In this document: positions 3,227-59,279 of the stretch, piece by piece
Position numbering within the stretch: position 1 is the stretch's first letter
Layout of the letters: every line of letters begins with the position of its first letter
Origin: Minisyncoccota bacterium
GTDB taxonomy: Bacteria; Patescibacteriota; Minisyncoccia; UBA6257; 2-01-FULL-56-20
Direction: 5' to 3'
NCBI GenBank assembly: GCA_025449695.1
Contig: JANWIW010000027.1
Location: forward strand, 283 to 64,282
DNA: 64,000 nucleotides
The notes under the pieces: generated by a model
What the model was told of the DNA's origin: nothing
The model's input: only the letters and a program-made list of their open reading frames with translations
Database searches by the model: none
Translations under genes and position numbers: made by a program

Positions 3227-3380
3227 TTTGCGGGCGCGGCAGGAACTGCCATAATAACCGTCACGTGTCCCGTTTGAGACACCCTTACCATGCCCAGATT
3301 CTTTAATACAAAACTACCTGCTGGTGCGTCAGGTATGCCGGCAATTCACGGAAACGCTTGCGTTTCCGGTCTCTAACGGG

Positions 3381-6387: not shown

Positions 6388-6408
6388 AGCTCAGGGTAAA
6401 GAATCGAG
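6338..6408 (+). repeat. 31-bp tandem duplication, 2.3 copies (AGAATCGACCCTTCGATAAAGCTCAGGGTAA)
   Basis: Exact copies at 6338-6368 and 6369-6399, partial third to 6408; shifts the frame at the GT2 C-terminus. Confidence 0.9.
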
Positions 6409-8670: not shown

Positions 8671-8780
8671 TCGTGATATCTTTTTCTGTCGTCCTGAGGT
8701 ATTCCGAAGGACCTTCTGCCCCCGAAAAGAGAAGGTTCTTCGCCCGTCCGCTGGAGGGCTCAGAATGACAAACATTACAC

Positions 8781-12479: not shown

Positions 12480-12513
12480 CGTTCTTTATAGTAGCACTGG
12501 GAAACGCCCGGCG

Positions 12514-15243: not shown

Positions 15244-15357
15244 CTGTCATCCCGGCCTTGCGGTGTCCTTCGAAGCCTAGGCGAAGGAGGGAGCCGGGAT
15301 CCAGACAAGTCATACTGGATTCTGGATAGCTCTCCTGGGCTTCCGGAATGACAAACA
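15244..15357. repeat. TGTCATCCCGGC ... GGCTTCCGGAATGACAA repeat (subfamily 2); copies at 51145-51239, 19889-19927 (half, inverted) and 52485-52534 (partial)
   Basis: 15244-15357 and 51145-51239 align over about 95 bp, with an internal hairpin GCCGGGATCCAG/CTGGATTCCGG. Confidence 0.75.
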
Positions 15358-15462
15358 GGCCTGAAAATAAACCTTACCAGACCATCCTACTTGCGCCGCT
15401 GCCATCGCCAGAATAAAATGATGCCCTAGGGTCCGTTCGGTCAGCCAACCAATCATTTTTCC

Positions 15463-25294: not shown

Positions 25295-25342
25295 CCCTCG
25301 CCTTTCCTTAAAATGCGGCCGCATTTTAAGGAAAGGCGAGGG
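25295..25342. repeat. perfect 48-bp palindrome centred on GCGGCCGC; a degenerate second copy lies at 25433-25470
   Basis: CCCTCGCCTTTCCTTAAAATGCGGCCGCATTTTAAGGAAAGGCGAGGG; second copy CCCTTTCCTTAGGATGCGGCCGCATTTTAAGGAAAGGG. Confidence 0.8.
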
Positions 25343-25512
25343 CGTGAGAATCGCCGGTAGCAGGGTGCCACCCTGGAAAAAGCGAATACTTGGTGATATC
25401 CTTCCTCCTGTTCCCACGCCTTTCTTTCTGTCCCTTTCCTTAGGATGCGGCCGCATTTTAAGGAAAGGGAAGATGGAACAGTTGGAGATTTTCCCGGGCA
25501 ATGTAACCTGGA

Positions 25513-32362: not shown

Positions 32363-34150
32363 ATGGGTCCGGAGACCCCTTCGACGGCTTCAATAAGTTC
32401 ACCGCAAGCAAGCTCAGGGCAAGACCGGGTATGCGCGAACTGCAAGGAACGGTTCACACTTGATCCGGATGATTTTTCTTTTTATCAAAAAATAGAGGTC
32501 CCGGCGCCTAGGTTCTGTCCCGCCTGCCGCAATCAGCGCCGGAGAGCATGGCGGAACGACATCTCTTTCTATAAAAGACAGTGCGATCTTTGCAAGAAGA
32601 ACATTGTCTCCCTCTACTCGCCGGACAAGACCCTTACCGTCTATTGCCAGAAATGCTGGTGGTCGGACGCTTGGGACCCGAAAGCTTACGGGCGAGATTT
32701 CGATTTCTCGCGGCCGTTTTTCGAGCAGTACCGCGAGCTTCAGAACGTGGTGCCCCTGATCGCGCTCATGAACGACGATGGGATAGGGAGCATCAACTGC
32801 GAATACACGCAGAACGTATCCTCGGCAAAGAACTGCTACATGGTGTCCTCTTCCTGGAAGAACGAGGAGTGCGCGTACGACATGCAAATATCCGGTCCGG
32901 AGCTTCGCGAGGTGTTCGATTCCCTGGATATCTTCCAGAAGTGCGAGATGGTGTACGACAGCATCTTTCTGGAGAGCTGTTACCGCGTACGAAACTGCTA
33001 CCGATCGTTCGCGCTCGTTGATTGCGCGTTTTGCCTGGAGTGCCGGGATTGCCAGGACTGCTTCATGTGCGTAGGGCTTCGCCGCAAGCGCTACTGTTTC
33101 AAGAACAAGCAGTATACGAAAGAGGAGTACGAGAAGATACTGGCGGAGTACAGGTTAGATACTTGGGACGGCAGGGAGCGCGCCCGGAAAGAATTCCAGG
33201 AGTTCATCCTGGAATATCCCCGCGAGTTCGCTATCCTCCGGAACTGCGTGAACTGTACGGGCGATCAGATGTTCAACTGCAAGAATATGAAGTATTCCTT
33301 CAATGTGCGGGGAAGCGAGGATACGGCATATTTCGAGAACGGTAATATCATCAAGACAGGATACGACATGGCGACAGGCGGCGAGAACGAAGAATGCTAC
33401 GAGGGCATCACTCCCGACAACGACTATCGGGCATTATTCACCATCTTCTCCTGGAAGAACTCGCATGCTGAGTATTGCGAGAATTGCCACTCTGGACAGA
33501 ATCTTTTCGGATGCTCCAGCCTGCGCGGCGCAAAGTACTGCATCTTGAACAAGGAATACACCAAAGAGGATTATCACGAGCTCCGCATCAGAATCGTCGA
33601 GCATATGAAGAAGACCGGGGAATATGGAGAGTTCTTCCCGGCGAAGCTCTCCCATTTTTGTTATAACGAGACCACTGCCCAGATGTATTTCCCGATCACC
33701 AAAGAAGAAGCACTGGCCAAAGGATATCGCTGGCAGGATAGCTTCCAGTTCACGACCGGCAAAGAGACGATCAAGGTAGAAGCTCTGCCCCAGACCATCG
33801 CGGAGGTGGGTGATGGCATTATGAAAGAGGTGCTTGCTTGTACTAACTGCAAACGTAATTACATCATCGTCCATCAGGAGCTCCAATTCTATCGGCGAAT
33901 GAACCTGCCTTTGCCGCGCCAATGTTTCTACTGCCGCAATGACGAGCGAATGCGTCTTCGGAACCCGTTCCGCCTTTGGCAGAGGCAGTGTGACTGCAAG
34001 GGCGCAGGATCGACTAACGGCATATATGCGAACGGAGAACCCCACTTCCACGGGGAAAAGGCATGTCCCAACACGTTCCAAACCCCCTATGCTCCCGAGC
34101 GCCCGGAGATAGTGTATTGTGAAGAATGCTATCAAGCCGAAGTCGTATGA
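32363..34150 (+). CDS. cysteine-rich multi-zinc-ribbon protein, paralog 1 of 4 (unknown function)
   Basis: 595 aa, about 8% Cys. N-terminal CxxC-x14-FYxK-x3-PxPxxCPxCRxQRR ribbon repeated near the C-terminus; central CxxCxDCxxC clusters each followed by YC(I/F)xNK(Q/E)YTKE(E/D)Y; conserved C-terminus PEIVYCExCYQAEVV. Confidence 0.7.
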   Translation: MGPETPSTASISSPQASSGQDRVCANCKERFTLDPDDFSFYQKIEVPAPRFCPACRNQRRRAWRNDISFYKRQCDLCKKNIVSLYSPDKTLTVYCQKCWWSDAWDPKAYGRDFDFSRPFFEQYRELQNVVPLIALMNDDGIGSINCEYTQNVSSAKNCYMVSSSWKNEECAYDMQISGPELREVFDSLDIFQKCEMVYDSIFLESCYRVRNCYRSFALVDCAFCLECRDCQDCFMCVGLRRKRYCFKNKQYTKEEYEKILAEYRLDTWDGRERARKEFQEFILEYPREFAILRNCVNCTGDQMFNCKNMKYSFNVRGSEDTAYFENGNIIKTGYDMATGGENEECYEGITPDNDYRALFTIFSWKNSHAEYCENCHSGQNLFGCSSLRGAKYCILNKEYTKEDYHELRIRIVEHMKKTGEYGEFFPAKLSHFCYNETTAQMYFPITKEEALAKGYRWQDSFQFTTGKETIKVEALPQTIAEVGDGIMKEVLACTNCKRNYIIVHQELQFYRRMNLPLPRQCFYCRNDERMRLRNPFRLWQRQCDCKGAGSTNGIYANGEPHFHGEKACPNTFQTPYAPERPEIVYCEECYQAEVV

Positions 34151-35901
34151 CCGAAACGCGCACTTGCGGTCATTGCCGGAGATCCTTTGTCGTGGAGGCG
34201 GACGATTTCTCGTTCTACGAAAAACTCAACGTGCCGCCTCCGACCTTCTGTCCGGATTGTCGCAAGCAGCGGCGGTTGGCATGGCGCAATGATAGTACGC
34301 TTTACTCAAGAGCTTGCGGTCTTTGCGATAAGAACACGATATCCATCTACGCGCCAAACGGCCCCATGCAGATCGTCTATTGCCAGAAGTGCTGGTGGTC
34401 CGACAAATGGGACCCCAAAGAGTACGGCGCAGAATACGATTTCTCCAAAACTTTCTTCGAGCAGTTTGCGGAACTTCAGCGGCGCGTTCCCGCACTCGCG
34501 ATGACCAATGACGACGGCATTAGCAGTGTCAATTCTGAATATACCCAGGATTTTGCGCGAGCAAAGAACTGCTACATGTGTTTCATCGGCTGGAAGGTGG
34601 AGGACTGCCTGTACGATTTCTACATCATAGGAGGTAAAGAGATAGTAGACGCGATCAACAGCATGGGGGAATGCGAGTACACTTATGAAACCGTCTATAC
34701 GGAGAAGTGCTATCAGAGCAGATATATCTACTCCTCGGTTTCCGTCTCCGACAGCGCTTTTTGTTATGATTGCAGGGACTGCACGGATTGTTTTATGTGC
34801 GTCGGTTTGCGGCACAAGCGGTATTGTTTCAAGAACAAGCAATACACCAAAGAAGAATACGAGAAAATACTTGCCGATTATCGCTTGGACACATACACCG
34901 GCGTGGAGCGTGCGAAGAAGGAGTTCGCGGACGTATTTTTCAGCAAGCCCAGGCGGTTCGCCATGCTCCGTAACTGCTTCAACTGCACTGGTGATGCGCT
35001 GATCAACGGCAAGAACTCAAAATACTGCTTTAACGTGCAGCGCCCCGAAGAAACCCGGTGGGTGGAGAATGGCGATACGCCGAAAGACAGCTACGATTTG
35101 AGCGTGGGAGGCGAGTTGCAGCAATGTTATGAAGGAATCACTCCGGACCATTCGTACCAAAGCCGCTTTGCCATATTTTCCTGGAGGAATACAGATGTTT
35201 CTTATGTCGACGGCTGTCATGCATCCGAACATCTTTTTGGATGTGCGGGCCTTAAGAAGGGACAGTACTGCATTTTCAACAGGCAATATCCGAAAGAGGA
35301 ATACGAGTCATTGGTAAAAAAGATAAAAGCGCAGATGGATGGTATGCCCTACGCCGACCGGCAAGGCATAAGCTACAAGTTTGGGGAGTTCTTCCCTGCG
35401 GAACTCTCCTATTTCCGATACAACGAGACCGTTGCACAGGAATCCTTCCCTCTTACCAAGGAGAAGGCCTCTGCGGAGGGATTGGATTGGCAGGAGCAAT
35501 TCCAGGTCACGATCGGGAAGGAGACGATCGATATCGCTAAGGTCCCCGATGCGATCGCCGACGTACCCGACTCCATAGTGGACGAGGTGCTTGCATGCGC
35601 AGGATGCGCGAGAAATTATCGCATAGTGCCTGCCGAGCTCAAGTTCTATCGCAGGATGAGGATCCCCCTTCCCCGGCGTTGTTTTTACTGTCGTCAGGCA
35701 GACCGGCTGAAATTCAAGAACCCCCATAAACTGTGGCACAGGCAGTGCCAATGCGCAGGAGAAAAGGAAAGCGGTTTCAAGAACACAGCAGCTCATTTCC
35801 ATGGCAAGAATTCTTGCCCCAATGAATTCGAAACCCCTTATGCTCCCGAGAGCCCCGAGATAGTGTATTGTGAACAGTGTTACCAAGCCGAAGTCGTATG
35901 A
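34147..35901 (+). CDS. cysteine-rich multi-zinc-ribbon protein, paralog 2
   Basis: Start MTETRTCGHC overlaps the paralog-1 stop (ATGA); same architecture. Confidence 0.7.
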   Translation: MTETRTCGHCRRSFVVEADDFSFYEKLNVPPPTFCPDCRKQRRLAWRNDSTLYSRACGLCDKNTISIYAPNGPMQIVYCQKCWWSDKWDPKEYGAEYDFSKTFFEQFAELQRRVPALAMTNDDGISSVNSEYTQDFARAKNCYMCFIGWKVEDCLYDFYIIGGKEIVDAINSMGECEYTYETVYTEKCYQSRYIYSSVSVSDSAFCYDCRDCTDCFMCVGLRHKRYCFKNKQYTKEEYEKILADYRLDTYTGVERAKKEFADVFFSKPRRFAMLRNCFNCTGDALINGKNSKYCFNVQRPEETRWVENGDTPKDSYDLSVGGELQQCYEGITPDHSYQSRFAIFSWRNTDVSYVDGCHASEHLFGCAGLKKGQYCIFNRQYPKEEYESLVKKIKAQMDGMPYADRQGISYKFGEFFPAELSYFRYNETVAQESFPLTKEKASAEGLDWQEQFQVTIGKETIDIAKVPDAIADVPDSIVDEVLACAGCARNYRIVPAELKFYRRMRIPLPRRCFYCRQADRLKFKNPHKLWHRQCQCAGEKESGFKNTAAHFHGKNSCPNEFETPYAPESPEIVYCEQCYQAEVV

Positions 35902-37580
35902 CCGAAACGCGCACTTGCCAGAACTGCAGCCAAGGGTTCTCCATAGAGGACGAGGACTTCAATTTCTACAAGAAGATAGAAGTGCCGCCGCCGACTCTCT
36001 GCCCCGACTGCCGCCAACAGCGTCGTATGGCTCATCGAGACAAAAACTATTTTCTAAGAAACTGCGACAAGTGCGGCAAAAGCTCCATTTCCATTTGGCA
36101 CCCCGACATTAAAGGCTATCTTTTTTATTGCAACGATTGCTGGTGGAAGGATGATTGGGATGCCTTCGAGTACGGGCGGGATTTCGACTTCTCTCGTCCG
36201 TTCTTCGAGCAATTCAACGAGCTGTACAAAGCCGTGCCGAAGCATATCTCGAACGCGATGCTTAATATGAAAAACTCCGACTACTGCATCAATGCCTCGC
36301 GGAGCAAAGACTGTTATATGGCTGACGAGATAGACGAATCAGAGCGTTGCGCCTACGGATACTGCGTCCAGAACTGCAAAGACTGCACAGATTGCCTCTA
36401 TGTCAACGAATGCGAGATAGGCTATGAGCTGGTGAAGTGCGATAACAACTATAAGGTTTTCTATGCCTACGATTCACACGCTTGTAATAACTCCGCGTTC
36501 CTGGCTCATTGTCGGGGCGTTTCAAATTCGCTGTTTTGCACCAATAAATACAACGTCACGAATTACTTGTTCAATGAACCCTCCACCGCAGAGGAAGTGA
36601 AGAAGGCCTGGGACGAAATCTTCTGTGGCAAAAACGGCAAACTCCAGGAGGCGCTCGCCAAGTACCAGGAGATCCTCAAGTCCTCCATCTCTCGTCCGCT
36701 TATCGGTACGAACGTCAAGAACTCATCGGGCAATTTTCTGGTTAACGTCCAGAATTGCAAAGACTGTTATTCGATAGACAACAGTATCAACTGTAAATAC
36801 TGCACGGACATCCATCATTCCAAAGACAGCATGGACGTGCATATTTACATCAGCGAACTGAGCTATGAGAGCCTTCACGCCTGGGGTTATAAACAGCTAT
36901 TCTCGCATCTCCTTTGGAACTGCTCCGATGCTACCTACGCCGACGAATGCCATAACAGCCAAGACCTCTTCGCCTGTTGCGGCCTCAAGAAAAAACAGTT
37001 CTGTATCCTCAACAAGCCTTATAGCAAGGAAGAATATCTGGAGTTGAAAGAAAAGATCATTGCCCACATGAAGCAGACCGGCGAGTACGGCGAATACTTT
37101 CCGGTTTCCATGTCGCCGCACGGCTACAACCACACCTTCGCGCAAGAGTTCTATCCGATGACCGAAGGAGAAGTAAAACAGCGCGGCTGGCAATGGCTTC
37201 CTGAAATCAACATCAGGGACAAGTACAAAGACAAAGTGATCACCCAGCTTCCTGATGATATCGCGGAAACCACACCCGCAATCTGTAATGAGATATTCGA
37301 GTGCGAAGCGAGTGGCAGGTTCTATCGGATAATTCCCGATGAGTACCAGTTTTATAAGAAGCACGGCTTGCCCCTGCCGCGTTTGTCGTCTCAAGAGCGC
37401 GACCATCTGCGTTGGGAGAAAACGAAGCCACGCCATCTATGGGACAGGGAATGTGCCTGTGCGAAGCAGTCCCACTTCCACGGGGCCAGCTCTTGCTCCA
37501 ATGCATTTAGGACCACACATGCTCCCGAGAGCCCCGAGATAGTGTATTGTGAGCAGTGTTACCAAGCTGAAGTCGTATGA
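35898..37580 (+). CDS. cysteine-rich multi-zinc-ribbon protein, paralog 3
   Basis: Start MTETRTCQNC overlaps the paralog-2 stop (ATGA); same architecture, more diverged middle. Confidence 0.7.
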   Translation: MTETRTCQNCSQGFSIEDEDFNFYKKIEVPPPTLCPDCRQQRRMAHRDKNYFLRNCDKCGKSSISIWHPDIKGYLFYCNDCWWKDDWDAFEYGRDFDFSRPFFEQFNELYKAVPKHISNAMLNMKNSDYCINASRSKDCYMADEIDESERCAYGYCVQNCKDCTDCLYVNECEIGYELVKCDNNYKVFYAYDSHACNNSAFLAHCRGVSNSLFCTNKYNVTNYLFNEPSTAEEVKKAWDEIFCGKNGKLQEALAKYQEILKSSISRPLIGTNVKNSSGNFLVNVQNCKDCYSIDNSINCKYCTDIHHSKDSMDVHIYISELSYESLHAWGYKQLFSHLLWNCSDATYADECHNSQDLFACCGLKKKQFCILNKPYSKEEYLELKEKIIAHMKQTGEYGEYFPVSMSPHGYNHTFAQEFYPMTEGEVKQRGWQWLPEINIRDKYKDKVITQLPDDIAETTPAICNEIFECEASGRFYRIIPDEYQFYKKHGLPLPRLSSQERDHLRWEKTKPRHLWDRECACAKQSHFHGASSCSNAFRTTHAPESPEIVYCEQCYQAEVV

Positions 37581-39286
37581 GCAACGAAACCAAAACCTGC
37601 CAAAACTGCAAGAAGGAGTTCGTTATCGAACCGGACAACGCCGCGTTCTGCGCGCACATGCAGGTGCCGCTCCCGACCTGGTGCCCGCCCTGCCGCCGCT
37701 TGCGGCGCATGGGCTGGACCGGCTACAGGATCCTCTATAAAAGGAAATGCGCCTACTCGGGGGAGGATATCATCACCTTCTACCATCCCAACGCTCCGTA
37801 TGTGATCTACAAGCAGGACATATGGTGGAGCGACAAGTGGGACCCCAAGAGCTACGGACGGGACTACGATTTCTCCAAGCCGTTCTTCCAGCAGTTCGAC
37901 GAGCTTCTGCGGTCGGTGCCCCTGCCCTCGCTCCATACGGAGTACACGACTCTCGTGAACAGCGACTACTGCAATGCCGTAGGGGGCCTGAAGAACTGCT
38001 ATCTGGTCTTCCAGTCCGGGGACGGGGCCTCGCATATAGGCCACGAGAATACGGCATACATGCACATGGTGGACGACACGAAGGACAGCATGGACATGTC
38101 CTTCTCCTCGAACTGCGAGCTTTGCTACGAGTGCGTGCGCTGCTTTGGATGCTTCCGGGCGCGCTGGTCCGCGAACTGCGACGAATGCCATAACGTCGCG
38201 TTTTGCCAGAGCTGCATTGGCTGTTCCGACTGCGTCGGCTGCGTGAATTTAAAGAACAAGTCGTATTGCATCTTCAACGAGCAGTATTCCAAGGAAGAGT
38301 ACGAGCGCAAGCTGAAGGAGCTCGATCTGGGATCCCGCGAAGGATTGGACAGGTTCGCGGTGGAATTCGCCAAGTTCGCGGAAAAGATGCCCCATCGCAT
38401 GTTCTACGGCCGGCACAACACTTCTACTTCCGGCGACTACATCTCCAATTCCAAGAACGTCCACGATTCCTACATCGTCCATGGCGCAGAGAACGTGCGC
38501 TACGGGCAGCTGCTGAGCGCGCCCGCGGCCAACGCCTACGACTACACGCTCTTCGGCACGTTTGCGGAGTGGATCTACGAATGCGCGTGGAATGGCTTGA
38601 GCAGCAACACGCTCAAGTTCTGCTTCTGGAACTACCACGCCCATCATCTTGATTACTCCCTCGGCTGCCACGGGTCGGAGAACCTGTTCGGCTGCGTGGG
38701 GGTTCGCAAGGGCTCCTATTGCATCTTGAACAAGCAATATTCCAGGGAGGAGTATCAGGAACTCGTCGCGGATATAAAACAGCAGATGGCGGAAATGCCC
38801 TACGTGGACCGCCTGGGCCGGAACTACTCGTACGGGGAGTTCTTCCCGCCGGAGATATCGCCCTGGACCTTCAACGAGTCTATGGCGTCCCTGGGCTTCC
38901 TCCCTTTGTCCCGCGAGGAAGCCCTGGCGCAGGGGTTTAACTGGCGCGAGGATGATGGCCGCCAGTATCGGGAGCCGACCGCGCCGGTACCGGCAAGTAT
39001 CAAGGATGTTCCCGAAGATTTCTCCAAGGAGATACTGAAGTGCGAGTATTGCGGTAAGAACTACCAGATCATCCCCATGGAATTGGATTTCTATCGCCAG
39101 TGGGACGTTCCCATCCCTTTGCGCTGCCCCTTGTGCAGGGAGAAAGACAGGGTCGCCAGCCTGAACCCCATGGCCATCTACGACCGGGAGTGCATGAAGT
39201 GCGGCAAGTCCATTCAAACCTCCTACGCGCCAGAAAGGAAAGAGATTGTATATTGCGAGACCTGCTATCAAAACGAAGTTGCATAG
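37577..39286 (+). CDS. cysteine-rich multi-zinc-ribbon protein, paralog 4
   Basis: Start MSNETKTCQNC overlaps the paralog-3 stop (ATGA); CIGCSDCVGCVNLKNKSYCIFNEQYSKEEYE; C-terminus IVYCETCYQNEVA. Confidence 0.7.
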   Translation: MSNETKTCQNCKKEFVIEPDNAAFCAHMQVPLPTWCPPCRRLRRMGWTGYRILYKRKCAYSGEDIITFYHPNAPYVIYKQDIWWSDKWDPKSYGRDYDFSKPFFQQFDELLRSVPLPSLHTEYTTLVNSDYCNAVGGLKNCYLVFQSGDGASHIGHENTAYMHMVDDTKDSMDMSFSSNCELCYECVRCFGCFRARWSANCDECHNVAFCQSCIGCSDCVGCVNLKNKSYCIFNEQYSKEEYERKLKELDLGSREGLDRFAVEFAKFAEKMPHRMFYGRHNTSTSGDYISNSKNVHDSYIVHGAENVRYGQLLSAPAANAYDYTLFGTFAEWIYECAWNGLSSNTLKFCFWNYHAHHLDYSLGCHGSENLFGCVGVRKGSYCILNKQYSREEYQELVADIKQQMAEMPYVDRLGRNYSYGEFFPPEISPWTFNESMASLGFLPLSREEALAQGFNWREDDGRQYREPTAPVPASIKDVPEDFSKEILKCEYCGKNYQIIPMELDFYRQWDVPIPLRCPLCREKDRVASLNPMAIYDRECMKCGKSIQTSYAPERKEIVYCETCYQNEVA

Positions 39287-39456: not shown

Positions 39457-40392
39457 ATGGCGCTTGCCCCGATGGCGAATGTGACCGACGCCGCGTTCCG
39501 GCGCCTTTTCGCCAAATACGGGAAACCGGACGTGACGTGGACCGAGTTCGTTTCCGTGGAAGGCCTGCTCTCCAAGGGGCGCGAGAAACTCCTTGTCGAT
39601 TTCTGGTTCACCGAAGCGGAGCGGCCCATCGTGGCGCAGATATTCGGCGGCAAGCCGGAACAGTTCGAGGAGATCGGCCCGCTCATCCGGGAGCTTGGTT
39701 TCGACGGCATAGATATCAATATGGGTTGCCCGGACCGGTCCATCGAGCGCTCCGGCGCGGCCGCCGCGCTCATCAAGGATCCCGCGCGCGCAAAGGAGAT
39801 CATCCGCGCCGCGAAGCGCGGCGCGGGCGGCCTGCCCGTTTCCGTGAAGACCCGCATCGGTTATAACAGGGACCAGACAGAGGACTGGATCCCCGCGCTC
39901 CTCGAAGAGGGCCTGGACGCGCTCTCCGTCCACCTCCGTACTCGCAAGGAGATGTCCGACGTCCCCGCGCGCTGGGAACTCGCGCCGCGGATAAGGGCGC
40001 TCCGGGACAAGCTTGCGCCGCAGACCCTGCTTTTGGGGAACGGCGATGTGGATTCGCTCGAGCTTGCCCGCTCAAGGACCGAGGCAAGCGGCTTCGACGG
40101 CGTGATGATCGGGCGCGGCATCTTCGGCAATCCCTGGTTCTTCTCCGGGCACGCGCCCTCCGTGGAGGAGAAGCTCGCGGTCATGATGGAACACACGGAA
40201 CTCTTCGAAGAACTGTTCGGATCGAACGGGCCGAAGCGCCTCAAGAACTTCGACGTCATGAAGAAGCACTACAAGGCGTATGCAAACGGCTTCGACGGTG
40301 CGAGAGACCTGCGCGCGAGGCTTATGGACGCGGGTGACGCGGCCGGGGTGCGCCGGATCACGGAGGAGTTCCTCGCCAGTCTGTCATCCTGA
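39457..40392 (+). CDS. dus: tRNA-dihydrouridine synthase
   Basis: MALAPMANVTDAAFRRL ... GIDINMGCP ... TIM-barrel Dus motifs; track start 39100 is an upstream extension. Confidence 0.85.
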   Translation: MALAPMANVTDAAFRRLFAKYGKPDVTWTEFVSVEGLLSKGREKLLVDFWFTEAERPIVAQIFGGKPEQFEEIGPLIRELGFDGIDINMGCPDRSIERSGAAAALIKDPARAKEIIRAAKRGAGGLPVSVKTRIGYNRDQTEDWIPALLEEGLDALSVHLRTRKEMSDVPARWELAPRIRALRDKLAPQTLLLGNGDVDSLELARSRTEASGFDGVMIGRGIFGNPWFFSGHAPSVEEKLAVMMEHTELFEELFGSNGPKRLKNFDVMKKHYKAYANGFDGARDLRARLMDAGDAAGVRRITEEFLASLSS

Positions 40393-40500
40393 GGTATTCC
40401 GAAGGTCCTTCGGCCACTGTTGTGGCCTCAGGATGACAGAGGGAAGAGACTTCCTAAGTCGCCCCTGAAGGGACTTCCTGCGGTCGCTCAGGGTGACAGA
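40381..40500. repeat. TGTCATCCTGAGG hairpin repeat (same superfamily); a related copy lies at 8686-8773
   Basis: CTGTCATCCTGAGGTATTCCGAAGG ... GCCTCAGGATGACAG; the first 12 nt encode the Dus C-terminus LSS*. The copy after the carbamoyltransferase shares 25 nt. Confidence 0.7.
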
Positions 40501-51086: not shown

Positions 51087-51417
51087 GTTAGCCCGCCCAT
51101 GATATCAAAAGAACGGCATTCCGTCGAATTTGGCTGTCCGGGACCTGTCATCCCGGCCTTGAGCCGGGATCCAGGATAACAGGGAAATACTGGATTCCGG
51201 ATAGCCCTGCTGGGCTTCCGGAATGACAAGCGGGCCTATTCGCTTTGTTTTCCGGATAGTATCCGTTCGATTTGACACGCTTCTACATTTGGCGTTGAAT
51301 AAGCAATCGTCCCTTGATAAGCAGGTCCGGAAAACCCAAGGGCAGCTATCTGCGCTTGGGTTTTCCGGACCGAACGCCGAATGCATCCTAACGATGTTGA
51401 AACCTGTGGAGGGACCG

Positions 51418-52653: not shown

Positions 52654-52742
52654 GGAGAGGTGGCTGAGTGGTCGAAAGCGGCTCCTTGCTAAGGAGTTAG
52701 AGGGGTTAAACCCTCTCGTGGGTTCGAATCCCACCCTCTCCG
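52654..52742 (+). tRNA. tRNA-Ser (anticodon GCT)
   Basis: Acceptor GGAGAGG/CCTCTCC, anticodon loop TTGCTAA, long variable arm, T-arm GTGGGTTCGAATCCCAC. Confidence 0.75.
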
Positions 52743-52874
52743 CCTTCGCCCGACGTAGCTTTAGCGAAGTCGGGATTCGCTAAAGCCGTCGGGCTTCGGC
52801 GGACGCAGTCCGCTCTAAAGGACAGCTTCGCCGAACTTTATAAATAGCTGATAAAGCACCTTTAGCATAAGGAT

Positions 52875-53123
52875 GTGTTTTACGTTTACATCTTAAAATG
52901 TGCAGATGGCCACCTTTATACTGGATGTACGGAAAATCTAAAGGAACGCTTATCCCGACATCGGGCCGGCCACGTTCCGGCCACAGCTTCACGCCTGCCT
53001 GTTGAATTAATCTGCTATGTTGCTTTTCATGATAAATATATAGCATTCGCATTCGAGAAATATTTAAAATTTGGTTCAGGGAGAGCATTCTTAAAGAAAC
53101 ATCTAACTATAGGAAGCGCATAG
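52875..53123 (+). CDS. GIY-YIG nuclease family protein (small stand-alone form)
   Basis: MFYVYILKCADGHLYTGCTENLKERLSRH is the classic GIY-YIG N-terminus; 82 aa; lower-GC region after tRNA-Ser. Confidence 0.75.
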   Translation: MFYVYILKCADGHLYTGCTENLKERLSRHRAGHVPATASRLPVELICYVAFHDKYIAFAFEKYLKFGSGRAFLKKHLTIGSA

Positions 53124-53265
53124 TGCCTGCCTGCAGGACACGGCCATGCCACCCGCTCCGCTGTCAAGCACCGTGACATTTGAAAAACCAACCGCCAAAC
53201 CTGTTTTCTTCGAGATGTTGCCAAGGTGCTGATACACTGCGTTGTAGTTGATCGATATGGAAATT

Positions 53266-53345
53266 TTATGTTTAGATAACTCATCGATCTTTGAAAAGCT
53301 TGTGACACCAGAAAAGGCTTGTCAGACCTTTTCTGGCGTCACAAG
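53266..53345 (+). promoter_or_regulatory. conserved 30-nt leader motif plus long hairpin; paralogous copy at 57471-57564
   Basis: TTATGTTTAGATAACTCATCGATCTTTGAAA versus TTATGTTTAGATAATTCACCGATCATTGAAA, each followed by a 16-19-bp stem hairpin, then SD and gene start about 40-110 nt downstream. Confidence 0.5.
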
Positions 53346-53384
53346 ACAAAGCCAGCAAATCTAACGCGAAAAGGAGAACGACAA

Positions 53385-53750
53385 GTGCAACAGATTCTCG
53401 TCATCACCCACAACGGCCTCCCGCCGAGCCAGGGAGGCAAGCGCCTCGGTTACGTCTGCGGCGACCTCGCCTTCATGTTCGGTGGTCCACCGCAAGGCAT
53501 CTCCCTCTCACGCCTCCGCATGATTCGAGAAGAGGAAGAGAAGAAAGCCGTGCCCGTACCCCCGTCATCCTCGCCGCCAGTCACGATGGTGGTCTACAAC
53601 ACGTTGAAGGAGGCGCAGTATTCGGACGGCGAGTGCCCGCACTGCGGCAAGTACCCGAACCCGACGGTGGACCTTCTCACCACGACGGGTATGCGACGGG
53701 TCGTTCAATGCACGAAATGCAACGAGTTCGCCCGTCCGTACGGGACCTAA
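53385..53750 (+). CDS. hypothetical zinc-ribbon protein
   Basis: GTG start with SD AAGGAGA 7 nt upstream; CPHCG ... CTKCNEF pair of Cys dyads. Confidence 0.45.
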   Translation: MQQILVITHNGLPPSQGGKRLGYVCGDLAFMFGGPPQGISLSRLRMIREEEEKKAVPVPPSSSPPVTMVVYNTLKEAQYSDGECPHCGKYPNPTVDLLTTTGMRRVVQCTKCNEFARPYGT

Positions 53751-53843
53751 CAACTCATCACGGCTCCGTCAGGAGGCTTCGGCCCCTCACGGAGCCGAAG
53801 TCTTTTAATGATCAGGCAAAAGAAAGTCGCAAAACCTAGCTGC

Positions 53844-53861
53844 AGGTTCGAACGTCCTCCA
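53844..53861 (+). repeat. 18-bp direct repeat AGGTTCGAACGTCCTCCA; second copy at 56182-56199
   Basis: Exact copies bracket the small-membrane-protein plus lipase module (about 2.3 kb); sequence resembles a tRNA T-loop (GGTTCGAA). Confidence 0.8.
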
Positions 53862-53914
53862 ATAACCCCTGCGTCGTATCGCATTTGCATAGGACGGAGC
53901 TTGTTCTACAATAG

Positions 53915-54244
53915 TTGCATATGGCCGAGCCGCAGGTGGTTCACCGGGTCTTAAAAGGAAGGATGTTTTTAAGTATCTTCTGGGGCGTCCTTATAGTGCC
54001 GTCGTTATTCTTTTTCGTAATGTCCCTGTTCGCGTTCGATGGGAATGGCGCTGGGCAAAGCCCGCTCGTGTGGACGGCCTTCCTGACCTCCTTCACCCTG
54101 CCGCTCGTTCTTCTCATTTGTTGTGTCGGCGGGATCATAGTCTCGCGTGGTGTCCGCACGAAAAGTAAGGATCGCGTGGCGACTATTTTCAGTATCGTCC
54201 CTGTAATCGCGCTCCTCGGGGCCGCACTGATCTTCGTCATATGA
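53915..54244 (+). CDS. small membrane protein
   Basis: Three hydrophobic helices; stop overlaps the lipase start (ATGA). Confidence 0.45.
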   Translation: MHMAEPQVVHRVLKGRMFLSIFWGVLIVPSLFFFVMSLFAFDGNGAGQSPLVWTAFLTSFTLPLVLLICCVGGIIVSRGVRTKSKDRVATIFSIVPVIALLGAALIFVI

Positions 54245-56031
54245 AAAAGATGCTCTTGATCCAGAAAGTGATGATGGCCGCCGCCGCGCTCGGCGTGCTC
54301 TTGAGTCCTCTCACCACCTTCGCCCTGGTCAAGAACGTCGCGAACAGTCCCGCGGGTACCTACGGCGTCGTGGACAAGCGCGAGTACCCGATCATCTTCG
54401 TCCACGGCGCGGCGGGATCGGAATTGGACAGGGGTGGCACCAATCTTTGGCCGGGATACATCGGCGGCATTATCAACGATTCGGGAGCGGCGCAAATGGC
54501 GCTGAACTCCGACGGCAAGACGGATTGCTGCGGCAAGGTCACGGCGACCAAGGTCCTCCGGTACGGGGCGGGTTATGACATAGGCAGTTCCTGGATCAAC
54601 CCTCAGTTCGCGCCCGTGTACCAGGGCTTCTACGACTACATGACGGGGCAGGGTTTCGCGTACGAGAACCCCGGCGAGGATGGCAAGGTGTTCTACGATT
54701 TCGTCTACGACTGGCGCAAGGACAACCGCGCCTGGACGCCGGAGCTAGACCGCAAGGTCAACCAGGTTCTCAAGGAAACGAAAGCCGATAAAGTCATACT
54801 GGCCGGCCACTCCATGGGCGGCATCCAAGTCCGCCTCTATATGAACAACCCGGCGTACGCGAAGAAGGTCGCCGCCGTCATTTTCCTCGCGACGCCCCAT
54901 CATGGTGCTCCCCAGGTGCTCTGGGCCTACACCTACGGGTACAACTTCGGCAACTCCAAGGTGGGGGACACGCGCATGTGGGAAGTCATGAAGAACTGGC
55001 CTGCAGGCTACCAGTTGCTGCCGGATTACCCTTCGGTCCAGGACGACGAGACGGGTAAGTTCTGGACGATGGACCAGCTTCTGGCCGGACAATTCTACAG
55101 CCAACAGGAATACCAGCACACGCTCGATAGCGCGACGGGCAGGGGAGCGACCTATCTGCCGCACGCCGGCCTGCCCAACGCGACGTTCGCGAGGGATGCG
55201 CTCGCCTTCCACCAGAACGTGTTGGGCGATTCGGTGAAACAGTACCCAGGGGTCAAGTATTACATGGTCGCCGGCACGGGACAGGACACCGTCCAGTACT
55301 TCACCGGCAAGCTTGTGTCGCGGCCGGGGTTCACGTTGCCGATCCTGGAGCTGACCAAAGTGAAGAGCAAGAACGGCGACGGCACTGTGCCGACGGCCGG
55401 CGCGAAGATAAACGGCGTTGACGAATTCGTCACCGTCGTCGGCGAGCACGGTGCTATACCGTCCACGCCCGCCGCGCAAGTCCTCGTCACCAAGTTCAGG
55501 AAGACTACCAACGACGAAGACTTCCGTAAGAGCCTGGATACGGCGTTTGCGCGGTACGCGACGCAGAAACTGCCGGAGGCCGCGCGCATGAGAAACGCGG
55601 GCCTTAACCGGAAGGAAGGTTCGGACAGCAAGGATGACAACCTTGCTATGAGCATCCTCAGACTGCTTTTCTTCCCCATTCCCAATGAAGAGAAGATCAA
55701 GGAGCGCGACGCCATGCAGCGCGACGCGGCGCGCATCTTCGAGAATCAAAACGTGAATGTAGAAATAACCGCGAGCGGGGATAAAAGCGACGACACGCTC
55801 CACGCGGTCATCAGAAACTTCGAATTGGCCGCTCATGGTAACGGCGTGGTATCGCCCGCGCAGACCACGATCCACGTGCCGAGCTACGAGATATTCGACG
55901 CCATCGTGAGCGGGAAGCTGGATGGCTGGGAGGCCTACAAGAACGGCACTGTCACGATTACCGGGAACGGCCTCATTAACGGGTTGAGGATGCGGTTCGT
56001 GTCTTGGCTCTCGAAGTTCGCGGGCATGTAG
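54241..56031 (+). CDS. secreted alpha/beta-hydrolase lipase (LCAT/PGAP1-like) fused to a C-terminal SCP2-like lipid-binding domain
   Basis: Signal peptide MKKMLLIQKVMMAAAALGVLLSPLTTFA; nucleophile elbow LAGHSMGG; C-terminal FDAIVSGKLDGWEAYKNGTVTITGNGLINGLRMRF resembles SCP2. Confidence 0.7.
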   Translation: MKKMLLIQKVMMAAAALGVLLSPLTTFALVKNVANSPAGTYGVVDKREYPIIFVHGAAGSELDRGGTNLWPGYIGGIINDSGAAQMALNSDGKTDCCGKVTATKVLRYGAGYDIGSSWINPQFAPVYQGFYDYMTGQGFAYENPGEDGKVFYDFVYDWRKDNRAWTPELDRKVNQVLKETKADKVILAGHSMGGIQVRLYMNNPAYAKKVAAVIFLATPHHGAPQVLWAYTYGYNFGNSKVGDTRMWEVMKNWPAGYQLLPDYPSVQDDETGKFWTMDQLLAGQFYSQQEYQHTLDSATGRGATYLPHAGLPNATFARDALAFHQNVLGDSVKQYPGVKYYMVAGTGQDTVQYFTGKLVSRPGFTLPILELTKVKSKNGDGTVPTAGAKINGVDEFVTVVGEHGAIPSTPAAQVLVTKFRKTTNDEDFRKSLDTAFARYATQKLPEAARMRNAGLNRKEGSDSKDDNLAMSILRLLFFPIPNEEKIKERDAMQRDAARIFENQNVNVEITASGDKSDDTLHAVIRNFELAAHGNGVVSPAQTTIHVPSYEIFDAIVSGKLDGWEAYKNGTVTITGNGLINGLRMRFVSWLSKFAGM

Positions 56032-56230
56032 TCCCGGCGTAGTTCGGGTTGCCGCCCGAACCGACCGCAGCCGGGGCAGCGACCAGAAGCCGTACTGGCC
56101 GGAAAGCGACCTCGCATCGAACGAGCGGCAAGCAGGTCGGGGCGAGAAGTACTCCGTGGTCTTCCAGGACCAGAAGGTAAGAGGTTCGAACGTCCTCCAG
56201 GAGCCCTCGCGTGACAACTTTTTACCGGCG

Positions 56231-56434
56231 TTATTTTTCGTATTCTAAAATGTCCCCGGGCTGGCATTCTAAAGCTTTGCAGATAGCTTCCAAAGTTGAG
56301 AGGCGAATTGCTTTTGCCTTTCCGTTTTTCAACACGGAGATATTGGCTATCGTGATGCCGACCCTCCCAGCAAGCTCGGTAACGCTCATTTTTCGCTTCG
56401 CCAACATGACGTCGATGTTGATGATGATTGCCAT
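56231..56434 (-). CDS. XRE-family HTH transcriptional regulator (Cro/C1-type)
   Basis: MSVTELAGRVGITIANISVLKNGKAKAIRLSTLEAICKAL; SD AAGGAG; 67 aa. Confidence 0.8.
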   Translation of the reverse strand: MAIIINIDVMLAKRKMSVTELAGRVGITIANISVLKNGKAKAIRLSTLEAICKALECQPGDILEYEK

Positions 56435-56444
56435 GTTGGTCTCC

Positions 56445-56927
56445 TTATACCGTTAAATCGTTCTCGGATTTTATATCCACGGCGTTTTGCAAAATCCGTT
56501 CAAACACGGCCGCCGCTGTGCCGATAACAATAGAGGCGAAGATAGCTACGAGACCCATCATTACACCTCCCGCAATGTCGTCCTTGCCTCTGATAGCTAT
56601 GAATAGATAAGCTTCTGCCCCCACGATAAAACCCGCGGTAGCTAGTGCGCAATATTTTATAGTCCGTAAAGCGTTCACGGCCGCTTGCGAGAATACCTCG
56701 TTTTGTCCGGTATATTCCAACACCCTGAATGCCTGATAGAGCGCAACGAAAAACGGAATAGACGCTATATACATATACGCCAGAAACGGATCTTTGAAGT
56801 AGATTGCGAAGAGCGTGGCGTGCGCATTCCTGCCTTCGAGGCGGGGCTCCCAAAGCATGAGGCCAATAACGCCGATGCTTAGAGCCACAATGACTACCTG
56901 AAGAAATATCGTTGAGCTTTTTTTCAT
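56445..56927 (-). CDS. DUF2975-family membrane protein
   Basis: 4-TM, 160 aa, immediately upstream of the XRE regulator (the conserved DUF2975 plus HTH pair). Confidence 0.65.
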   Translation of the reverse strand: MKKSSTIFLQVVIVALSIGVIGLMLWEPRLEGRNAHATLFAIYFKDPFLAYMYIASIPFFVALYQAFRVLEYTGQNEVFSQAAVNALRTIKYCALATAGFIVGAEAYLFIAIRGKDDIAGGVMMGLVAIFASIVIGTAAAVFERILQNAVDIKSENDLTV

Positions 56928-57673
56928 AGGTGGTTCTTACAGATTCTTATAGTTTCAAGCTTAATTTAGTGGTTATCGTTTGTCAATATATATTTATCGT
57001 TACTAGCTACTCTCAATAATTGTCATCTTTTGTCCCTCATAGTTCAGCCTGCCTCAGTATCGGGCTTGACCCGAATGCTTATGATGGCAGAGGCGATCCG
57101 AGTATGTGTCTTGATATGCTAAGATCAAAATATTATGAGGATTCATCCAATTGTCCGCATCTTGGCAGGTATAGCTTTACTCGTCCTTATTTTTGTGGGC
57201 TTTGTAGCATGGCGCATGGGACTTCCGTCATTCCAGGGAACAGGAGGCGTGTTTGGTGCTTTAGCTGGGCTAGTGGGCGGTGTGATAGTCGTCTACATAC
57301 TGAATTGGTTTTGGAAAAACTATCGAAAATAGCTTGCGACCCACAAGGCTATTGTGCGAACTTTGCTGAGCCTAGAAAAATCCTGCTTTACCCTGTATCG
57401 ACTGGGGACTTAACTCACGTGGCCCGCTGGTGTAGAACGGCCTCGAACCTGTTTGACGAATCTGGATTATTTATGTTTAGATAATTCACCGATCATTGAA
57501 ATGAATTTATACGGAACTTGACCTGGAAGCCTAAGCGCAAAGACCGTTTAGGCTTCCAGGTCAGGAAAGACTACGTAAAGGAGGTTGGAACGATCGTGGA
57601 GCTTGAGACTGCGAGCGACGTGCATGTCGCTGGCTTGTGGTTGTTACCTTTGAACTGAGACGGAGGTTCTCCT

Positions 57674-59080
57674 ATGTTCAACGCTAAACTCGCCCTCATG
57701 GATTCCAGGGATCTCTGGCGAGAAAAATTACTCGCCCCTCTCATTGAGTTCGGGCGTATCCCGGGCATCTCGCCCGGCTATGCCCCGACCTGGGCCGCCG
57801 ACGGGCACATCCAGCGCACCGCCGAATTCATGGCGTCGTGGTGCAGGACGTTGCCCATCCGTGGACTCAAGGTGAAGATCATGCGCTCCGGCAAGAGGAC
57901 GCCGATGCTTCTCGTCACCGTCCGCGGCAAGGTGCGCGGCACAGTGGTCGGGTACGCACACGGCGACAAACAGCCGGTGCTCGAAGCCTGGCGCCGCGGT
58001 CTCGATCCGTGGACGCCTCTGCGGAGGGGCAGGAAGCTCTTCGGCCGGGGCCTGGCCGACGACGGCTACGGACTCTTCGCGCTCATGGGCGCGCTCATGA
58101 TCCTTCAGCAACAGGAGGTTGACCACCGTACCTGCGTCTGCATCATCGAGTTCTCCGAGGAATCGGGGAGCGTCGACCTGCCGGCGTATCTCAAGAAGCT
58201 GCGGCGCCAGCTCGCCAACCCGTCGCTCATCGTCTGTCTCGATTCCGGAGCAGGCGACTATGGTCATCTGTGGCTGACCGGCTCCCTGCGCGGCGTCGGC
58301 AACGGCTTCCTGGAAGTCAAAACGATGCTGACCGGCAAGCACTCTGGTGAAGGTACAAACATCGTGGCCGACACGTCGCGCATCACCCGCCACCTGCTTG
58401 ACCGCATCGAGGACTCCGCGACCGGCCGGATCATCATTCCCGGCGTCGACGTGGAGATTCCCGAGGACCGCATGGCGGAGCTCAGGGCGGCCGCGGAGGC
58501 CATGGGTGACAATGTGTGGAAGGATATGCCTCTCCTCCCCGGCGTGCGGCCGATGAGCGATGACCCGCTCGAGCTGCTTCTGAACCGCACCTGGCGCGCG
58601 GGCCTCACGCAGACCGGCATTGCCGGCATCCCCGGCCTTGACGGAGGCAACGTGCTCCGGCCGAGCACCACCACCAAGCTCTCTATGCGGTTCGCGCCGA
58701 CGGCCGACGCCCACGCCCTCATGGCGAGGATGAAAGAGATTCTCGAAGCGGATCCGCCGTACGGCGCGCAGGTCACCTTCACGCTGAGCCAGGTCGTCCA
58801 GGGCTGGACCGCCCCCGAGATGCCGGCATGGCTTGCGGCGAGCGCAGCCGAATCTTCCCAGGCCTTCTTCGGACGGCTGGTCAAGATCCTCGGCGAGGGC
58901 GGCTCGATCCCGTTCATGAAGATGATGAGCGACTACTTTCCCGGCTCGCCGCTCTTCATTACCGGTCTGCTCGGACCCGGAGCCAACGCTCACGCGCCGA
59001 ACGAGTCGCTCGACCTGCCGACGGTCGTGAAGCTCACGGCCACGATCGCCAAGCTGCTCGCGGACGACGCGCGCCGCTGA
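57674..59080 (+). CDS. M20-family metallopeptidase (dipeptidase/deacylase)
   Basis: HGDKQPV and GRGLADDG metal-binding motifs; SD GGAGG upstream. Confidence 0.8.
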   Translation: MFNAKLALMDSRDLWREKLLAPLIEFGRIPGISPGYAPTWAADGHIQRTAEFMASWCRTLPIRGLKVKIMRSGKRTPMLLVTVRGKVRGTVVGYAHGDKQPVLEAWRRGLDPWTPLRRGRKLFGRGLADDGYGLFALMGALMILQQQEVDHRTCVCIIEFSEESGSVDLPAYLKKLRRQLANPSLIVCLDSGAGDYGHLWLTGSLRGVGNGFLEVKTMLTGKHSGEGTNIVADTSRITRHLLDRIEDSATGRIIIPGVDVEIPEDRMAELRAAAEAMGDNVWKDMPLLPGVRPMSDDPLELLLNRTWRAGLTQTGIAGIPGLDGGNVLRPSTTTKLSMRFAPTADAHALMARMKEILEADPPYGAQVTFTLSQVVQGWTAPEMPAWLAASAAESSQAFFGRLVKILGEGGSIPFMKMMSDYFPGSPLFITGLLGPGANAHAPNESLDLPTVVKLTATIAKLLADDARR

Positions 59081-59279
59081 TCTACCTTCGTACGCAGTCT
59101 TTTCGGGAAGCAATCATGTCCCGGCGGATGGCAGCCCGAACTGCCATCCGCCACTTACAAACACCTTCGCAATGGTGTTTTGTCGTTTTATGGCAGCGAA
59201 TTGCTTCTCTAGCGGTTCGAACATGTTCCAGGAACCCCGCGGCGAAAACCTGTCGAGCGCGATAGGGTATACTCAAAAA

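Follow-up and report, generated by a model that had tools for sequence, protein, structure and literature searches.

A lipase-SCP2 operon of a Minisyncoccota bacterium lies between probable attachment-site copies of a tRNA-targeting family of large serine recombinases

In a 64,000-nucleotide stretch of the genome of a Minisyncoccota bacterium (contig JANWIW010000027.1, positions 283 to 64,282; called the window here), a two-gene module that encodes a small membrane protein and a predicted extracytoplasmic lipase lies between two exact copies of an 18-mer, AGGTTCGAACGTCCTCCA. We consider it probable that the two 18-mers are copies of the core of an attachment site, and that this site is used by large serine recombinases (LSRs) of one family, whose members insert mobile DNA at the tRNA genes of Patescibacteria and further lineages of small cells. 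Since the repeats match the attachment-site signature of this family, the lipase module appears to sit in a patchwork island of imported DNA, of which a neighboring tRNA-Ser(GCT) gene is the probable original integration target and anchor.

The repeat pair had been pointed out in an earlier note made from the sequence alone, and both copies were recovered at the positions it gave, on the + strand. These are the only two copies in the window, where no third match with two or fewer mismatches was found. None of 100 shuffled sequences contained a match to the 18-mer, and by our own arithmetic about 0.03 exact 18-mer pairs are expected per 64 kb. The likeness of the two copies extends past the 18-mer, reaching 31 nt at 84% (53844-53874 versus 56182-56212), and a degenerate copy is probably present further downstream. 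The tRNA gene and the three motif copies are the following.

52654-52744, + strand: tRNA-Ser(GCT) (ARAGORN; Rfam tRNA, 61.3 bits)
53844-53874, + strand: motif copy 1, the 18-mer (53844-53861) with its outer arm, a pseudo T-arm (motif hidden Markov model (HMM), E 7e-7)
56182-56212, + strand: motif copy 2, the 18-mer (56182-56199) with its outer arm GGAGCCCTCGCGT (motif HMM, E 2.6e-8)
59213-59243, + strand: probable degenerate motif copy 3, CGGTTCGAACATGTTCCAGGAACCCCGCGGC, intergenic (repeat family 68%, pattern match)

All four features are on the same strand, at successive spacings of 1.1, 2.3 and 3.0 kb, and the first of these distances is the one that the earlier note had given between tRNA-Ser(GCT) and the module. 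Copy 3 (CGGTTCGAACATGTTCCAGGAACCCC) ranks third in the HMM search and is the best match to copy 2 in the window (p ~0.03). Read on the minus strand, copy 1 translates as ...GLLEDVRTCS* and copy 2 as ...RGLLEDVRTSY.... The repeats had also been likened to the 3' part of a tRNA. A resemblance to a T-arm is present, with a T-loop-like stretch in the repeat, but its loop would have 9 nt (TTCGAACGT) on a stem of 3-4 bp in place of the canonical 7-nt loop and 5-bp stem. ARAGORN and Rfam recognized neither window copy as a tRNA or as any Rfam family, and they likewise returned no tRNA and no Rfam family at the 18-mer sites of 20 metagenomic loci. On these negative results a genuine tRNA or tmRNA fragment, or another known RNA family, was rejected.

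The identity of the motif became apparent outside the window. When contigs from public metagenomes were scanned, the 18-mer was found at 41 loci (L-numbers denote the retrieved loci examined in this analysis). Most of them have unrelated flanks and share a block of ~30 nt, often with a terminator hairpin after it. The reverse complement of the 18-mer, TG GAG GAC GTT CGA ACC T, encodes (V/L)EDVRT. Three loci, L025, L034 and L038, have open reading frames (ORFs) of 529-583 aa whose near-C-terminal end is encoded by the motif. The three encoded recombinases are 35-41% identical to each other, and the two that were scanned (L025 and L038) have the Resolvase, Recombinase and Zn_ribbon_recom domains of LSRs. 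Because the core encodes the near-C-terminal (V/L)EDVRT(F/Y) of the LSR itself, the recombination site would be located inside the 3' end of the recombinase gene. LSR genes retrieved independently of the 18-mer contain the same DNA, in the form GAGGACGTTCGAACT in L068 and L070 and GATGTTCGAACC in L063. Among the motif copies that are not exact 18-mers, the valine codon GTT is retained in ~15 of 16 by our own count, and the other codons vary synonymously (GTG to GTA, GAC to GAT, CGA to AGA, ACC to ACT). The shared nucleotides together with the synonymous changes suggest that constraint acts at the level of both DNA and protein.

The family is large. A protein-only search with one of these LSRs retrieved more than 5,258 relatives, mostly from Patescibacteria and including some labelled Thaumarchaeota and Nitrospirota. 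Among the best 120 of these, 98 have xDVRT near the C-terminus and 8 have tails of the (E/D)SN type, several sequences stopping just before the motif. The family was found at four loci in viral contigs (best identity 44%), and the phage integrases in GenBank that it matches have no more than 23-27% identity to it. The 18-mer is absent from IMG/VR, and a degenerate motif pattern gave four uninformative matches. A phage origin of the motif was rejected given the absence of the 18-mer from IMG/VR and the near absence of the LSR family from viral contigs. The loci examined showed no tyrosine recombinase.

The (E/D)SN-type tails connect the family to tRNA genes. In all three loci of this type for which the DNA was read, the LSR ORF runs antisense into an intact tRNA, as follows.

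L047, antisense: LSR tail over tRNA-Asn
L067, antisense: LSR tail over tRNA-Leu(TAG)
L071, antisense: LSR tail over tRNA-Val(TAC)

In L067 the tail is encoded by gag gac tcg aac ctc (EDSNL), where the motif has gag gac gtt cga acc (EDVRT). Judged from these alignments, the motif is a mimic of the T-arm with two extra bases in its loop (TTCGA[AC]GT), and the two extra bases both abolish the tRNA likeness and shift the reading frame. We had also considered, from an alignment with tRNA-Asn, that the motif is a tRNA 3' end with a 5-nt insertion reflecting the known 5-bp difference in spacing between the attP and attB sites of LSRs; this was dropped, as the 2-nt loop insertion revealed by L067 is simpler. 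In L047 and L058 the motif and ~170 nt beyond it align with the 3' end of tRNA-Asn and its downstream flank, as would be expected of a displaced half of the target site.

Comparison of loci indicates that flanks switch at the motif. L053 and L055 have a common right flank and diverge immediately to the left of the 18-mer. On the other side, L019 and L047, the contigs of the L026 type, and L034 are alike through the left flank and the motif and diverge after it, with the recombinase gene coming next in L034. L047 has a 6.4-kb recombinase-bearing insert at tRNA-Asn, and L058 lacks it. L022 and L054, from related genomes, have a tyrosyl-tRNA synthetase-like gene in common (80-90% identical) and, upstream of it, different cassettes between their motif copies. 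Two or three same-strand motif copies, 0.6-3.7 kb apart, were found in ~15 of the 41 loci, and a tRNA followed downstream by same-strand copies, as in the window, is also found in L047/L058, L023 and L054. By inspection, with no domain search, the segments between copies encode a toxin-antitoxin-like pair, a methyltransferase-like protein, membrane proteins and proteins of no evident kind. The recombinase-bearing elements carry defense and other cargo (a type ISP restriction enzyme, AbiE, Shedu, HxsD/radical-SAM genes) together with a recurring small HTH_3 gene, and a RuvC-like gene is often near. One island, in L072, combines two recombinases, tRNA-like scars and two motif copies.

Three further observations were made at these loci. 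Between adjacent serine recombinase genes of L072, at 11561-11700, there are three tandem antisense T-loop-like remnants (ggaatcgaacc). At 12015-13616 of the same locus, Shedu (SduA) and SocA/Panacea genes lie between motif copies, in what looks like a defense island built on this LSR system. In L052 a distant LSR gene (2214-4024; 28% identical) is on the same strand as the motif, which lies 256 nt upstream of the start of the gene, and the 3' end of the LSR gene overlaps the 5' end of tRNA-Lys, a geometry unlike that of the main LSR family.

We propose that integration of an LSR element at a tRNA gene would join the body of the LSR to the real tRNA 3' end, after which the tail would read (E/D)SNL, and would leave the T-arm mimic at the opposite end of the inserted DNA. 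Further rounds of integration, followed by decay, could then give rise to an island in which copies of the mimic, all on one strand, divide the DNA into short segments. In the window, such an island would start at tRNA-Ser(GCT) and comprise three segments bounded by copies 1, 2 and the degenerate copy 3, with the lipase operon as the recombinase-less middle segment. This segment would be an insert that has decayed or else a cassette mobilized in trans. The repeats may accordingly be scars of successive integrations at the tRNA as opposed to the two ends of a single 2.3-kb element. We infer the integration of the lipase module itself, the position of the crossover and the role of the enzyme.

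The middle segment contains the following features.

53884-53912, + strand: sigma-70-type promoter TTTGCA-17-TACAAT (promoter scan), 23 nt past the first 18-mer
53921-54244, + strand: small membrane protein gene, 107 aa from ATG or 109 aa from TTG at 53915 (ORF list)
54241-56031, + strand: predicted extracytoplasmic LCAT/PGAP1-type alpha/beta hydrolase of 596 aa (Pfam, homologues, invariant residues)
55672-56028, + strand: SCP2-fold domain with predicted lipid binding, lipase residues 478-596

These ORFs bear out the two-gene module that the earlier note had placed between the repeats. The stop codon of the membrane protein gene overlaps the start of the lipase gene (ATGA). The membrane protein has three hydrophobic segments and no Pfam match and is on record as a protein of 107 aa. 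Its gene precedes that of the lipase in no relatives other than the two closest, L014 and L017. An alignment with L014 shows the promoter to be conserved, and because the ATG lies 8 nt past the -10 box the mRNA is probably leaderless.

Several observations weigh against our interpretation. Searches of the 64-kb window by tblastn with four LSRs detected no LSR gene or fragment (nothing below E 0.1), and no Pfam recombinase is present in the module or its neighbors. The GC content of the module, 0.592, is that of the genome, so the module is not compositionally foreign. Taken alone, copy 3 does not reach significance (HMM E 0.19), and the outer arms of the window copies are only loosely like tRNA-Ser 3' ends, for which reason a derivation of these arms from tRNA-Ser was dropped. 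Perhaps 10 of the 41 metagenome matches are due to chance or to unrelated coding sequence, our own rough expectation being ~15 chance matches in a collection of this size, and in L071 no mimic was found within 10 kb on the far side of the element. The comparison of related genomes suggested in the earlier note revealed no empty site and no single repeat copy among the relatives retrieved, none of which was syntenic. The closest module, in L014 (lipase 83% identical), lies between different flanking genes and lacks the 18-mer, and a motif-like stretch downstream of the module is marginal (p 0.04-0.4). In favor of our interpretation, 15 of 17 positions of the copy-2 outer arm survive in L014 as a relic that directly precedes the conserved promoter (p ~0.0035). 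In distant relatives the lipase genes are found in varied housekeeping contexts without flanking motifs. The earlier note's proposal of site-specific integration is upheld to the extent that the repeats match the attachment signature of an LSR family, which marks cassette boundaries elsewhere, and is weakened by a window that has no recombinase and by the missing empty site.

Two lipase loci showed additional features. In L014, the lipase gene is followed by an ORF of 94 aa (2963-3247) with a transposase-like N-terminus, for which Pfam gives DDE_Tnp_1_5 only at E 0.27, and past this ORF there is a degenerate T-loop-like stretch, TGCAGTTTCCGAACATTTTCCGAAC. In L005, a lipase locus of Vogelbacteria, a motif variant (GTAGAGGATGTTAGAACT) occurs at 664-690 and 1835-1861, with the copies 1.17 kb apart, inside an identical duplicated element of at least 110 nt that lies 4 kb upstream of the lipase.

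The same arrangement could reflect a platform similar to an integron, in which an LSR acting in trans inserts and excises cassettes between motif copies, so that the lipase module would be mobile at present and not a fossil scar. Many loci have two or three same-strand copies around LSR-less segments of 0.6-1.8 kb with one or two genes, the cassettes of L022 and L054 differ at the same locus, and the module is found in another context in L014. That copies 1 and 2 are exactly identical suggests that the sites are recent or have been maintained. However, no excised circle, empty site or trans-acting LSR was observed here, and LSRs normally need distinct attP and attB sites, as well as a directionality factor for recombination between attL and attR. 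Successive integration and decay of whole elements would also produce the same pattern, as in known tRNA-anchored islands (10.1101/2020.12.28.424599). We regard active exchange of the lipase module as rather unlikely, while giving it some weight.

A role in gene regulation was also considered, with the motif as a cis-regulatory element (e.g. a transcription-factor site) of co-regulated promoters that has no connection with recombination. The 18-mer of copy 1 is followed at 23 nt by the -35 box of the module promoter, an HD-domain gene has a -10-like TATACT ~55 nt past copy 3, and the core of the motif contains a palindrome, GTTCGAAC. Copy 2, in contrast, is located between convergent genes with no + strand gene after it, and the motif is the coding 3' end of recombinase genes across unrelated lineages and occurs at the points where one flank gives way to another. 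A chance duplicate, or a functionless remnant of a segmental duplication, has in its favor that the number of pairs expected per 64-kb window is not negligible when many windows are read, and has against it the shuffled control, the likeness beyond 18 nt and the recurrence of the same 18-mer and its extended signature at dozens of independent loci in metagenomes, which are linked to a single family of recombinases. Because the motif recurs across lineages, we find a regulatory site very unlikely and a chance duplicate or duplication remnant even more so. An insertion sequence or a miniature inverted-repeat transposable element (MITE) was rejected, as the ends of the module have no inverted repeats, Pfam detects no transposase, and 18-31 nt exceeds the length of a target-site duplication. 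An integron cassette was rejected as well, the repeats being direct with only a short palindromic core and the associated enzyme being a serine recombinase.

Returning to the proposed recombinase-derived island, its cargo is of interest in itself. The lipase matches Pfam LCAT (E 7e-15, 55.5 bits against a cut-off of 21) and PGAP1 (E 3e-9, 37.3 bits against a cut-off of 24.3). A GHSMGG nucleophile elbow occupies residues 189-194, and S191, D380 and H403, the predicted catalytic triad, are invariant across 33 homologues. Residues 1-28 form a segment resembling a signal peptide. The N-termini of all members of the family have a positive charge followed by a hydrophobic run that ends in a conserved A-L-x-K, a segment that would serve as an export signal. 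These results agree with the signal-bearing LCAT/PGAP1-like hydrolase of the earlier note. We identified 36 full-length homologues of 567-617 aa; the few that are named come from metagenome-assembled genomes of Patescibacteria, Vogelbacteria or Dehalococcoidia, mostly Patescibacteria.

The last 119 residues of the lipase form a separate conserved domain, which the earlier note had compared to SCP2. SCP2 (PF02036) is its best Pfam match, at E 0.029 and 15.1 bits, below the cut-off of 21.3, and a profile search of PDB sequences has only SCP2 proteins or SCP2-like domains among its top ten matches, with E values (0.06-0.4) short of significance. An AlphaFold (AF2) model of the domain had a predicted local distance difference test (pLDDT) score of 75, and in a Foldseek search of the PDB all of the top 35 matches to this model have the SCP2 fold (best E 1.7e-5, probability 1.00, template modeling (TM) scores 0.5-0.63). 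Because the top 35 Foldseek matches are all SCP2 folds, the domain call is correct at the level of fold; the sequence score alone stays below the Pfam threshold. The cargo is probably an exported phospholipase or acyltransferase, with the SCP2 domain holding the lipid. Bacteria of the Candidate Phyla Radiation (CPR) have been reported to be unable to synthesize membrane lipids and to be enriched in lysolipids (PMC7242380). Scavenging of host lipids by the lipase-SCP2 protein is plausible and would fit these reports.

The segments on either side of the lipase module contain the following features.

52745-53843, + strand: island segment E1, between tRNA-Ser and copy 1 (GC 0.516)
52875-53123, + strand: GIY-YIG nuclease gene (Pfam GIY-YIG, E 2.6e-13)
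53385-53750, + strand: gene for a 121-aa zinc-ribbon protein, in E1
53761-53797: terminator-like hairpin after the zinc-ribbon gene
56231-59080, both strands: island segment E3, between copies 2 and 3 (Pfam)
56231-56434, - strand: HTH_26 regulator gene (Pfam)
56445-56927, - strand: DUF2975 membrane protein gene (Pfam)
57135-57332, + strand: membrane ORF of 65 aa, in E3
57674-59080, + strand: M20 peptidase gene (Pfam; GC 0.655, the window maximum)

The GC content of the island is a mosaic around the window mean of 0.582, with 0.516 in E1, 0.592 in the lipase module, 0.46 at 56200-57600 and 0.655 in the M20 peptidase gene. The best homologues of the M20 peptidase are ~50% identical, save one fragment at 100%, and those that are named come from outside the Patescibacteria, e.g. 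Rokubacteria and Myxococcales. The gene was probably acquired horizontally, and for this reason it failed as a synteny anchor for finding relatives.

Other repeats were noted in the window. A direct repeat of 49 nt, 80% identical and with a promoter-like TTGAY...TAGATAA, is present within 53248-53345 and again within 57453-57563. Each copy is followed by a different hairpin with a 19-bp stem and no Rfam match, the copies lie upstream of the zinc-ribbon and M20 peptidase genes, and they span 4.2 kb that includes both 18-mers; the repeat may represent a promoter or leader common to the two genes, or else a further boundary. Elsewhere, an intergenic element of 95-120 nt at 15244-15362 and 51145-51237 has a 51-nt core that is ~90% identical, inverted ends (CTGTCATCCCGG ... 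CCGGAATGACA) and, in one copy, an internal insertion of ~30 nt, and is MITE-like. A 36-nt pair with an internal hairpin (92% identity) is found at 8685-8720 and 40380-40415, a 36-nt palindromic pair 132 nt apart at 25301-25336 and 25433-25468, and an exact 31-nt tandem duplication at 6337-6398. In the region 32650-38770, paralogous stretches recur in tandem three or four times, every ~1.7 kb and with 60-80% DNA identity, and within them a 48-nt unit, TAYTGYATCTTGAACAAG...GAGGA.TA, occurs in seven copies.

Taken further, our results raise the possibility, which we advance only tentatively, of a very large LSR family that has a near-universal pseudo-T-arm (GGTTCGAACGTCC) in its own C-terminal coding region as attachment site, targets the T-arms of tRNAs and maintains arrays of recombinase-less cassettes, of which the lipase-SCP2 operon would be one exchangeable member. 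A literature search of incomplete coverage found no description of an LSR family with a pseudo-T-arm inside its own 3' coding end, and neither the tail dimorphism of the LSRs nor the arrays of small recombinase-less cassettes were found described in it. Ultra-small symbiotic bacteria are known to hold many genomic islands (PMC12455944). The motif and its LSRs would provide a concrete mechanism for the gain and swapping of accessory genes in such symbionts, with a site that can be recognized from ~30 nt. With the site in the 3' end of the recombinase gene, integration would rewrite the tail of the enzyme, which could be a built-in switch between the free and the integrated state. LSRs with predictable attachment sites are wanted for genome engineering, and a family that has over 5,000 members, a common core and a natural tRNA target would be easy to assay. 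The lipase-SCP2 protein, for its part, is a candidate for the route by which lipid-auxotrophic bacteria acquire membrane lipids. If the cassette system is real, it would be a serine-recombinase counterpart of the integron that passes a tool for lipid acquisition between symbionts.

Both tRNA-anchored islands with scars of attachment-site repeats and hydrolase-SCP2 fusions are already known. In the tycheposon islands of Prochlorococcus, a tRNA lies at the edge, direct repeats of partial tRNAs end the tandem inserts and older inserts are displaced outward by newer ones; integrase-less remnants are frequent, and adaptive or defense genes make up the cargo (10.1101/2020.12.28.424599). Tyrosine recombinases are used by 910 of 937 tycheposon elements, and the repeats are true partial tRNAs (10.1101/2020.12.28.424599). 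The window is similar in having a tRNA at the edge and tRNA-like direct repeats around a recombinase-less segment. Its repeat, unlike those of tycheposons, is a T-arm mimic with a 9-nt loop, is near-identical across lineages and doubles as LSR coding sequence.

Integron arrays resemble the motif arrays in being made of cassettes of one or two genes, mostly promoter-poor or self-contained, that are split by a recurring recombination site, in carrying toxin-antitoxin and accessory cargo, and in existing also without an integrase. Integrons rely on the tyrosine recombinase IntI and on folded single-stranded attC hairpins of variable sequence, whereas our motif is a conserved site of the double-strand type tied to serine recombinases, and the mobility of its cassettes is putative. 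In the composite islands of the staphylococcal cassette chromosome (SCC) type SCCmec, which use the LSRs CcrAB, direct repeats at the 3' end of rlmH/orfX separate tandem elements, and pseudo-elements that lack a recombinase but have these repeats on both sides can be mobilized in trans. The SCC target is the 3' end of a protein gene, the repeats lie outside the recombinase gene, and the hosts are staphylococci. The window shares with SCCmec the LSR-linked site repeats around a recombinase-less segment and differs from it in the tRNA-like site and the location of the repeat within the recombinase gene. Remodeling of a gene upon integration is known from mycobacteriophage repressors, where attP lies inside the coding region of the element and integration swaps the C-terminal tail. 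In our family, unlike in these repressors, the affected gene is that of the recombinase itself and the swapped tail is an antisense reading of a tRNA.

Finally, several enzymes resemble the lipase in having a catalytic part followed by a C-terminal SCP2 fold, including the alkylsulfatases SdsA1 and Pisa1, the thiolase-SCP2 fusion SCPx, and MFE-2. Such enzymes were among our Foldseek matches, and their SCP2 domain is thought to bind the hydrophobic substrate. To our knowledge no LCAT-SCP2 fusion has been described. In contrast to SdsA1/Pisa1, SCPx and MFE-2, the enzyme in the window has as its catalytic domain an LCAT/PGAP1-type alpha/beta hydrolase with a predicted signal peptide.

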